NCBI RefSeq assembly: GCF_024281035.1
Contig: NZ_JAMXLH010000032.1
Location: 30,764 to 94,763, forward strand
Origin: Paraburkholderia sp.
Lineage (GTDB): Bacteria > Pseudomonadota > Gammaproteobacteria > Burkholderiales > Burkholderiaceae
Length of the DNA: 64,000 nucleotides
Reading direction: 5' to 3'
This document shows, in pieces, positions 58,463 to 59,715 of this stretch. Within the stretch, counting starts at the first letter, position 1, and every line of letters starts with the position of its first letter. A program made the position numbers and the translations under genes. Under the pieces are notes generated by a model, which was not told the origin of the DNA, did no database searches, and was given only the letters and a program-made list of their open reading frames with translations.

Positions 58463-58503
58463 GCAGGACGTGGCCGCGCACCGCACGGTGCGCGGCCCAT
58501 TCA
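58463..58503 (+). repeat. REP-like hairpin element, copy 1 (left flank of the phosphatase cassette)
   Basis: GCAGGACGT-GGCCGCGCACCG-CA-CGGTGCGCGGCC-CATTCA, with a perfect 12-bp stem. Confidence 0.92.
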
Positions 58504-58535
58504 ACACGAATGAAAGCGCGCGAGCAGACGCTTTA

Positions 58536-59489
58536 TCAACCAAGCAATTTCGATTTCAGCAGATTCTGTGTGCTGCTACTCAGGTTCAGACCTTCGGTGA
58601 TATAGCCGCTCGTCGAACCGAAGCTTGTCACTGCCTGGTTAAAGCCGGCCAACAGGAAATGTGTCTGAACGCCAAGCAGCGGATAGAAGTTGTCGGCATA
58701 GGTCTGCCCATAGTGGGCAATCATGGCGTTGTATTGCGACTCGATAGACGCCGCGGAATAAATGTTGGTCAGCAGATAATCCTGAATCACCACGCTTTCC
58801 GGCACTTCTGCGAGCGTCAGCAGAATCGCCGCGATCCAGCCTGCGCGATCCTTTCCGGCGGTGCAGTGAAAAAGCTGGGCATTCGCACCGTTGGCCATGC
58901 CCGTGAGCGCCTCGCCGATTCGCGCGCGTATGCCTGCATCGGTGACGAATTGCCGTTCGATTTTCTCCATAAAGGCAGCGGCGTCGGCGGGTGACTGGAG
59001 CGTGGGCACGACCACGTTACTGCTCCCGAGAATATCGACGTTGACGTATTTCGCACCGGCTGGCACGGTATCCGGCGCCTGCGTAATTTCCGAGCCGGTT
59101 CTCAGGTCATAGACGGCCTTGATTCCCAGAGTGTTGATCGTTGTGAGGTCCGCAGCGGACAGGGCGAGTGCGTTAGACCGGTAAAACACGCCTCGACGCA
59201 GTTTCTGCCCGCTAGCGGTCCGATAAGCCATATTGTCGTCGGCGCCTGCAAGGTCGCGAAAGTTGTTGACCGAAGCGAGAATCGGTGTAGGTGGCGTCGG
59301 TGCAACCGGCGCGGGACTCGTTGGCGTGGCCGTGGCTGTACTGTCATTCCCCCCGCAAGCCGTTAGCAGCGAACTGCCGACTACCGGCAGCATCAGCGCA
59401 CCAAACGCGCCTTGAACCGTCCGCTGCATCAGTCTGCGTCGGCCCGGCGAATGCGGTGCGTGTTGTGTTTCGTATCGGCAATGCTGCAT
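58536..59489 (-). CDS. Tat-type lipoprotein tyrosine/lipid phosphatase (Y_phosphatase3, MptpB/LipA-like)
   Basis: Twin-Arg-like GRRRLMQ, hydrophobic stretch, lipobox LTAC. Contains NNFRDLAG, YRSNAL, YDLRT, P-loop FHCTAGKDRAG and DYLLTN. The ATG at 59489 has a GGAGGG RBS. Confidence 0.88.
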   Translation of the reverse strand: MQHCRYETQHAPHSPGRRRLMQRTVQGAFGALMLPVVGSSLLTACGGNDSTATATPTSPAPVAPTPPTPILASVNNFRDLAGADDNMAYRTASGQKLRRGVFYRSNALALSAADLTTINTLGIKAVYDLRTGSEITQAPDTVPAGAKYVNVDILGSSNVVVPTLQSPADAAAFMEKIERQFVTDAGIRARIGEALTGMANGANAQLFHCTAGKDRAGWIAAILLTLAEVPESVVIQDYLLTNIYSAASIESQYNAMIAHYGQTYADNFYPLLGVQTHFLLAGFNQAVTSFGSTSGYITEGLNLSSSTQNLLKSKLLG

Positions 59490-59667
59490 TGCTATCCCTC
59501 CAAAAAAGAAAGCCGCAATGCTGCAATCTACCGATTGCATCGATATGACCGATTAGCATCTCGAATTATTTTGGTGATTATCCGAATTCGGGCGAACGCG
59601 GGTGAATCGGCTTACACGCCGTCCGCGGCGTAACCCGTCGCTGTGTCAGCCAGCCGGAACGCGGTTA

Positions 59668-59715
59668 GCAGGACGTGGCCGCGCACCGCACAGTGCGCGG
59701 TGCGCGGCCCATTCA
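59668..59715 (+). repeat. REP-like hairpin element, copy 2 (right flank), with a 7-bp internal duplication
   Basis: GCAGGACGTGGCCGCGCACCGCAC-AGTGCGC-GGTGCGCGGCCCATTCA. Confidence 0.92.

Follow-up and report, generated by a model that had tools for sequence, protein, structure and literature searches.

How did a single phosphatase gene come to lie between two same-orientation copies of a GC-rich hairpin in the genome of Paraburkholderia sp. (assembly GCF_024281035.1)? The gene is located in a stretch of 64,000 nt (the window; contig NZ_JAMXLH010000032.1, positions 30,764 to 94,763), between an aldo/keto reductase gene (akr) and the gene of a BON-domain protein (BON). A first-pass annotation, made from the sequence alone, proposed that the gene had been inserted at a terminator or repetitive extragenic palindromic (REP) hairpin with duplication of the whole site, resembling attC- or REP-targeted cassette capture. 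Here we compared the locus with its counterparts in the genus and surveyed the genome for copies of the element and for recombinases. The feature is probably an old, locus-specific insertion scar, left by a one-step insertion with target duplication and not by a mobile cassette system.

Extent and origin of the direct repeat

The 41-nt element GCAGGACGTGGCCGCGCACCGCACGGTGCGCGGCCCATTCA recognized by the first-pass annotation was found, as described there, at 58463-58503 and 59668-59715 in the same orientation. Its layout is GCAGGACGT-GGCCGCGCACCG-CA-CGGTGCGCGGCC-CATTCA (58463-58503), and it centers on a perfect palindrome whose arms are 12 nt each (58472-58483 and 58486-58497). The hairpins of copies 1 and 2 are designated T1 and T2, respectively. 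The two copies are identical at 41/41 positions, save for a 7-nt insertion (59691-59697) in copy 2. This insertion, originally read as a 7-bp duplication, is a tandem CGGTGCG; the duplication is perfect in same-species Logan contigs (99% identical), and compared with these the window carries one further G>A change. Because each half of the element (21 and 18 nt) is confined to these two sites, its recurrence is beyond a chance match.

The repeat reaches further left than first noted. The segment 58421-58446, which consists of the final 23 nt of akr including the stop codon and 3 additional nt, matches 59646-59671 with 4 mismatches in this genome, and none of the shuffled sequences scored as well (0/2000). 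The repeated unit is the 3′ tail of akr, a spacer, and the hairpin, i.e., more than the hairpin alone. The presence of this pseudo-akr tail beside copy 2 indicates that the repeated DNA is chromosomal target sequence. Homology to akr over a further 47 nt upstream of copy 2 was not significant (score 11 vs. a shuffle mean of 8.8, p 0.14). Copy 1 contains an extra 20 nt (58447-58466) bounded by CAGKACGT 8-mers. This piece, TACGTTGAAGTAAATCGCAG, is AT-richer, is present in copy 1 only, and is also found in Paraburkholderia denitrificans; it resembles a small insertion accompanied by an 8-nt duplication.

Comparison of the akr-BON junction within the genus

akr was present in 120 of the 121 sampled genomes of the genus, and the best 29 same-genus akr loci were compared in detail. 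akr adjoined the Lhr helicase gene in 28 of these 29 loci, while akr and BON were adjacent, followed by rpoN, in 23, with a spacer of about 60-215 bp. Most akr-BON spacers contained a single strong hairpin that was species-specific, with stems of 8-17 bp, and several had A/T tracts. BON was absent in three of the 29 loci (L023, L027, and L035). Outside the clade that shares the insertion (described below), the phosphatase gene was found at none of the 29 same-genus akr loci. The empty akr-BON spacers in 23 species support insertion. Examination of this junction in relatives had been proposed as a check for an empty site with one hairpin; the relatives do lack the phosphatase gene and usually have one hairpin, but the hairpin sequence is different and species-specific. 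Of the original proposal, the insertion at the akr-BON hairpin with a duplicated site is retained, and the capture of attC or REP type is not.

The inserted DNA is compositionally foreign. The GC content of the insert is 0.58 and that of its 5′ non-coding part is 0.51, compared with 0.635 for the genome. The preference of the phosphatase gene for A/T-ending codons, already remarked on in the first-pass annotation, was borne out with the neighboring genes alone as the baseline: the GC content at third codon positions is 0.66 in the phosphatase gene vs. 0.80-0.82 in Lhr, akr, and rpoN, and 0.73 in BON. One minus-strand Y_phosphatase3 gene is the single gene between the copies, as had been reported. 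None of the nine alternative open reading frames (ORFs) in 58504-59644 matched Pfam, and the stated absence of a transposase in the insert agrees with this, the phosphatase being the only Pfam match. No match to Rfam was found in 57000-60600.

Phosphatase homologues elsewhere in the genus are at other loci and show ≤49% identity. The closest homologue outside the clade (70% amino acid identity) neighbors a permease gene and has a terminator of its own; at the DNA level, homology with it ends at the stop codon and the ribosome-binding site (RBS). The search for a donor of the phosphatase gene found none, the nearest outside homologue being only this one of 70% identity in a different context. 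The usual Y_phosphatase3 version of the genus, which is the one ≤49% identical and gave a match with E≤0.001 in 23 of 38 good-quality relatives at other loci, is absent here. The divergent phosphatase, the only Y_phosphatase3 copy of this genome, may be a functional replacement of the usual version.

Sister lineages and age of the insertion

Two further lineages carry the phosphatase gene at this locus. P. denitrificans has the same order, akr-T1-phosphatase-pseudo-tail-T2, with ca. 93% DNA identity. The third lineage, represented by the metagenome-assembled genomes (MAGs) GCA_004298475.1 and GCA_004322125.1 and Logan contig SRR8426597, has kept T1, the phosphatase gene, and BON. It lacks the DNA corresponding to 57195-58460 of the window (all of akr and its upstream region) and to 59603-59724 (the pseudo-tail and T2), and gaps of 175 bp and 101 bp separate its phosphatase gene from Lhr and from BON, respectively, with BON upstream on the same strand. 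The three lineages are roughly equidistant, with 95-97% identity in Lhr and rpoN and 91-93% in the phosphatase gene. For the phosphatase DNA, this genome and P. denitrificans share 93.3% identity, and either shares 91.2-91.4% with the MAG lineage. The BON gene of P. denitrificans is truncated by a deletion of ~275 bp (window ~59894-60167), through which the start codon and some two thirds of the coding sequence are missing.

This genome and P. denitrificans have in common the 20-nt indel and three substitutions by which the real tail and the pseudo-tail differ, one of these three lying just outside 58421-58446/59646-59671. Since these differences are shared, the duplication is older than the split between this genome and P. 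denitrificans. The pseudo-tail and the real akr tail also share derived AGC and GAA compared with the outgroups G011 and G088, indicating that the pseudo-tail was copied within this lineage and not imported from afar. The insertion is old and probably dates to the common ancestor of the three-lineage clade.

The first loop base of the hairpin is C in both copies of this genome, whereas the two P. denitrificans copies and the single copy of the MAG lineage have T. The six bases after T1 are the same as those after T2 in this genome only. The loop base is a small signal that hints at gene conversion between the copies, and recombination between them is plausible. No excised allele was found among the clade assemblies, all of which keep the phosphatase gene; the sole variant has lost akr and copy 2. 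A Logan contig that extends exactly from T1 to T2 with 30-nt identical ends (L064) was considered as a circle and rejected, since the collapse of a 33-nt repeat in a k=31 assembly graph has the same outcome.

The dN/dS of the phosphatase gene was 0.14-0.18 among the three lineages, and that of rpoN and akr was 0.05-0.07. Lhr values involving P. denitrificans were disregarded as an artefact of the reading frame. The match of the phosphatase to PF13350 is full-length (189 bits vs. a cut-off of 22.2; profile positions 3-239 of 240), and the CX5R active-site motif HCTAGKDR is intact. The dN/dS values show purifying selection and, together with the intact motif, indicate that the gene is functional.

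Copy number of the element and search for recombinases

With the element halves allowed 0 and 1 mismatch, only the two known sites were detected in the 5.59-Mb, 78-contig genome, and blastn-short found nothing above 17-22 nt elsewhere in it. In a set of 213 Paraburkholderia genomes, exact copies of the element occurred, besides this genome, only in P. denitrificans, which has two at the same locus, 1196 bp apart; the element was absent from 211 of the 212 others. A metagenome scan with the 21-mer (241 million records) returned only two unrelated chance matches. The genome-wide count, which had been suggested as a check, shows that the element is not a high-copy REP, the finding that would have spoken against the original proposal.

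No match to the Phage_integrase family was found in the window, and the nearest one on the contig is at C32:205905, >110 kb off. Genome-wide, 18 Phage_integrase-family matches were counted, without sorting for IntI. The genome contains one Y1_Tnp match, which is weak (27 bits; C51:23377-23667) and is on another contig without a copy of the element.

Targeting of the REP type did not find support in this survey: the element count in the genome is two, and no REP-associated tyrosine transposase (RAYT) gene is flanked by the element. Capture of the attC type fared no better, since the element is a perfect bulge-free palindrome without core sites and the nearest tyrosine recombinase is >110 kb away. 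Several element families were tried and rejected. A REP family was rejected on the two copies only, and attC/integron on the hairpin anatomy, the lack of a nearby integrase, and the host coding sequence in the repeat. A palindrome-associated transposable element (PATE) of the IS200/IS605 type was ruled out by the akr tail that accompanies the hairpins and by the empty sites of relatives, which have a hairpin of their own. A Xer/dif-like site, for which the motif GGTGCGC is present, was rejected because the center, of only 2 nt, differs in length by 7 nt from one copy to the other.

Proposed course of the insertion

The following course of events would account for the locus. In the common ancestor of the clade, a foreign 1.1-kb fragment probably landed directly downstream of the akr-BON hairpin, bringing one apparently secreted, lipoprotein-type Y_phosphatase3 gene together with its own RBS and promoter region. 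The same event would have duplicated ca. 65 nt of the target, namely the last ~24 nt of akr and the hairpin, and this target duplication would leave the new gene bracketed by direct repeats of host DNA. The left junction of the insert is 0-6 nt past the hairpin stem. For the duplication, we infer one of two routes. In the first, a template switch during replication or repair would have left the chromosome just past the hairpin and re-entered it ca. 65 nt upstream. In the second, a circular fragment carrying this short homology would have integrated by a Campbell-type single crossover. Both copies would then have been kept as each would act as a terminator, T1 for akr and the phosphatase gene and T2 for BON, with T2 also shielding the phosphatase promoter.

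The positions of the hairpins fit such roles. T1 is 28 nt past the akr stop codon and 38 nt past that of the phosphatase gene, and T2 is 58 nt past the BON stop codon. Predicted RNA folding of T1 yields -32.6 kcal/mol (z -3.1) for the plus strand and -42 kcal/mol (z -3.5) for the minus strand, and that of T2 yields -55.4 kcal/mol (z -5.0) for the minus strand. From position, T1 is presumed to be the bidirectional terminator of the convergent akr/phosphatase pair, and T2 is likewise presumed to be the BON terminator that insulates the phosphatase promoter. This genome, with its intact BON, has a perfect T2 whose stem has grown to 15 bp. Two internal mismatches interrupt the T2 stem of P. denitrificans, in which BON is truncated, and the MAG lineage, whose BON and phosphatase genes form a same-strand pair, has lost T2. 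This later history of T2 fits the putative terminator role.

Several observations weigh against this course of events. A terminator scan called neither T1 nor T2 on either strand, and there is no canonical U tract; the best candidate for one is AUUUACUU, which on the minus strand follows T1 by 14 nt. No clear microhomology was found at the junctions, which are blurred by later divergence, and on this account the template-switch and Campbell routes are indistinguishable. No empty akr-BON site with this same hairpin was found in the genomes searched, and the pre-insertion sequence is a reconstruction, as other hairpins occupy the spacers of the outgroups. Within the genome, the hairpin halves are identical while the adjacent tail differs at 4/26 positions, which needs selection or gene conversion. 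Finally, P. denitrificans and the MAG lineage, which lacks akr and has a single hairpin, are at about the same distance, and this makes an ancestor of the order akr-T-phosphatase-BON with a later duplication equally parsimonious.

Alternative explanations

This last point leads to a two-step origin, which we regard as unlikely. The phosphatase gene would have been inserted to the right of a single terminator, with no duplication, to give akr-T-phosphatase-BON, and the akr tail and T would have been copied across at a later stage, in an ancestor shared by this genome and P. denitrificans. For instance, [tail-T-phosphatase] may have been duplicated in tandem, an event common in bacteria, and the second phosphatase copy then deleted. 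From such an intermediate, the T1-phosphatase-BON order of the MAG lineage without copy 2 needs only one deletion, that of akr, and the phosphatase DNA does group this genome with P. denitrificans (93.3% vs. 91.2-91.4%). However, the three substitutions and the 20-nt indel between the tails predate the split of these two. Lhr and rpoN place the three lineages at about equal distances, and the duplication therefore seems to predate any short internal branch. The intermediate akr-T-phosphatase-BON was not found.

A decayed element is distinctly improbable. Here, an island bearing a tyrosine or serine integrase would have integrated site-specifically at the akr 3′ end through an attP with a copy of the akr tail and hairpin, giving attL and attR, and would later have shrunk to one cargo gene. 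Insertion by an integrase classically leaves direct repeats that hold the 3′ end of the target gene, and at a second locus (the PBP-OEP locus, described below) three terminator copies share flanks in the manner of attL, attP-type, and attR sites of tandem elements. Nevertheless, no integrase gene or remnant was found in the 1.14-kb insert and none within 110 kb, the same minimal single-gene content is seen in all three lineages, and shrinkage to one gene with both ends intact would be required. Moreover, the 7-nt length change at the center of T2 is unexpected for a conserved crossover site.

That the hairpin is an attC-, REP-, or PATE-like site of an active cassette system, served in trans by IntI, RAYT, or TnpA so that the phosphatase gene is excisable and recapturable, can be put down as very improbable: one gene bracketed by same-orientation hairpins, the one Y1_Tnp-domain ORF (27 bits, C51), and the loop base common to both copies here and different from both P. 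denitrificans copies, which hints at exchange, would suit it, but the genome has only two copies, both at this locus, the element is missing from 211 of the 212 other genus genomes searched, the akr coding sequence in the repeat marks it as target DNA and not a cassette end, the perfect bulge-free palindrome lacks RYYYAAC/GTTRRRY core sites, and there is one locus across three species-level lineages with no excised allele seen.

Comparison with known systems

A number of known systems resemble the feature in part. attC sites are imperfect palindromes with R''/L''-L'/R' sites (RYYYAAC...GTTRRRY) and extrahelical bases. Integron cassettes share with the feature a single-ORF unit with a hairpin at the ORF 3′ end, and the hairpins here have the same orientation. 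They differ in that there is no attI, Pc, or adjacent integrase here, the gene comes with an RBS and promoter region of its own, the genome has only two sites, and host coding sequence (the last ~24 nt of akr) forms part of the repeat. Neither of the element flanks, GCAGGACGT and CATTCA, fits the core-site consensus of attC given above. REPs occur in tens to hundreds of copies per genome. REP/bacterial interspersed mosaic elements (BIMEs) with RAYT, and PATEs, are similar to the feature in being GC-rich intergenic palindromes after stop codons, with same-orientation hairpins at both ends of a segment. In contrast to REP/BIME-RAYT systems, there are two copies here and no RAYT gene flanked by the element; and the hairpins of PATEs belong to the element, whereas those here come with a copy of a host gene tail.

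Islands inserted by integrases, with attL/attR at the 3′ end of a gene, are comparable in that the repeats here hold the target 3′ end, the gene stays intact, and the inserted DNA is compositionally foreign. Unlike such islands, the insert is only 1.1 kb with one gene, has no recombinase gene in or near it, and has as the repeat core a perfect terminator-like palindrome with a length-variable center. Regarding the unoccupied site, relatives have one hairpin of another sequence, and no genome with a single copy of this hairpin and intact akr and BON was found among those compared.

Template switching (fork stalling and template switching, FoSTeS, or microhomology-mediated break-induced replication, MMBIR) and Campbell integration resemble the case in producing a one-step insert flanked by a direct target duplication of tens to hundreds of bp. 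For template switching, the hairpin is a plausible stalling point, the insert starting 0-6 nt after the stem. These are, however, mechanisms and not families, and no junction microhomology or donor circle is demonstrated here. MMBIR is known mainly from eukaryotes, and Campbell integration from laboratory constructs.

The closest counterpart in kind is the small islet. Minimal mobile elements, or islets at hotspots between conserved genes, go back to Saunders & Snyder 2002, as cited in PMC1797815; they are one-to-three-gene inserts without insertion sequence (IS) or phage genes. As in these elements, the flanks Lhr-akr ... BON-rpoN are conserved here and the content between them varies by lineage: the spacer is empty in 23 loci, the phosphatase gene is present in the clade, BON is absent in three loci, and akr is absent in the MAG lineage. 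The definition of minimal mobile elements rests on exchange by homologous recombination in the flanks following transformation, with no need for flanking repeats, whereas the insert here is bracketed by a 65-83-nt target duplication. The feature is a small islet at a hotspot with a flanking target duplication, of a kind already known.

Under the preferred one-step reading, the locus would be an example of a single foreign gene settling in a bacterial chromosome without mobile-element machinery. The gene would have landed beside a terminator between convergent genes and gained a terminator on each side, after which the flanking genes were lost piecemeal by lineage, akr in one and BON in another. 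The dated, three-lineage series is useful for studying insertion hotspots without mobile elements. It would matter more if terminator-duplicating insertion holds true as a general route of gene gain.

Genes of the locus

The features of the locus are listed in Table 1. For the akr start, relatives align from residue 2 of the 57394 frame. Public annotations give the phosphatase 317 or 297 amino acids (aa); the start is most likely the ATG at 59489 behind the GGAGGG RBS, in agreement with 317. A promoter scan of 57000-60600 gave a single promoter-like match (59577..59606), and the number expected by chance is also 1. Read by eye, the phosphatase N-terminus (...GRRRLMQ...LLTAC, then GGND) has the appearance of a lipoprotein signal. 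Its relatives of solved structure are distant: Mycobacterium tuberculosis PtpB (1ywf) and a TYR_PHOSPHATASE_2-domain protein (8dhi), both with E 4e-15. The protein is an apparently secreted, lipoprotein-type relative in the family of M. tuberculosis PtpB, and the two later gene losses beside it may merit a functional look.

Table 1 Features of the akr-BON locus, with positions in the window.
Feature	Position	Strand	Remarks
Lhr helicase	52380-57161	-	
akr, aldo/keto reductase, 348 aa from ATG 57397	57397..58443	+	Pfam PF00248, E 9e-83; conserved left flank
Direct repeat copy 1, 83 nt	58421..58503	+	akr tail with stop (58421-58446), 20-nt extra (58447-58466), GACGT, T1, CATTCA
T1 hairpin	58472..58497		perfect 12-bp GC-rich stem, 2-nt center; strandless
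Inserted non-duplicated DNA, 1141 bp	58504..59644	-	phosphatase gene, RBS, and promoter-like region
Phosphatase, Y_phosphatase3, 317 aa from ATG 59489, RBS GGAGGG	58536..59489	-	Pfam PF13350, E 2e-55
Sigma-70-like promoter match (TTCACC-18-GATAAT) upstream of the phosphatase gene	59577..59606	-	weak; chance expectation also 1
Direct repeat copy 2, 71 nt	59645..59715	+	pseudo-akr tail (59645-59668, ...CCGGAACGCGGTTAG), CAGGACGT, T2, CATTCA
T2 hairpin	59677..59709		T1 with 7-nt tandem duplication (59691-59697); 15-bp stem on minus-strand RNA; strandless
BON-domain (OsmY-like)	59768..60133	-	Pfam PF04972, E 1e-17; weak NCBIfam OsmY match; conserved right flank
rpoN paralogue	60466-61953	+	

Other hairpin-containing repeats in the genome

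The whole genome was scanned for gene-scale direct repeats containing a hairpin. Besides one repetitive coding region on C29 (~215-216 kb), three loci were obtained, namely the akr-BON locus and two others. At C29:176236-179105, a 49-nt terminator element, AATAAAGGTGGTCGATACGGCGCGTTGGTGACAACGCGCCGTATTTTTT, occurs three times between convergent genes encoding a penicillin-binding protein (PBP) transpeptidase and an outer membrane efflux protein (OEP). This terminator differs from the akr-BON hairpin and has a T tract. Its copies bracket two lower-GC blocks, one with a YggS-like gene and the other with DUF3828 and a CHAP/NlpC gene; copies 1 and 2 share a right flank of ~75 nt, and copies 2 and 3 share a left flank of ~50 nt. 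P. denitrificans has one copy and the first block only, followed by a GntR-like fragment.

The PBP-OEP locus resembles the akr-BON case. Because of this resemblance, we keep a slim chance for a recurrent, terminator-associated insertion process, in which terminator hairpins between convergent genes would be recurrent entry points, with the terminator and adjacent DNA copied to both sides of the insert. Such a process could be hairpin-stalled template switching or an unrecognized host-encoded recombination at palindromes.

Neither the C29 nor the C50 repeat locus matched Rfam. The latter, at C50:93000-96700, consists of four tandem units of ~424 bp (68-94% identical), each ending in the hairpin AAAGTGTTTCCCGGGGAAACACTTTT, with two more copies of this hairpin 2.3 kb further on and no conserved ORF. 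The C50 array may represent small RNA genes or small protein genes.

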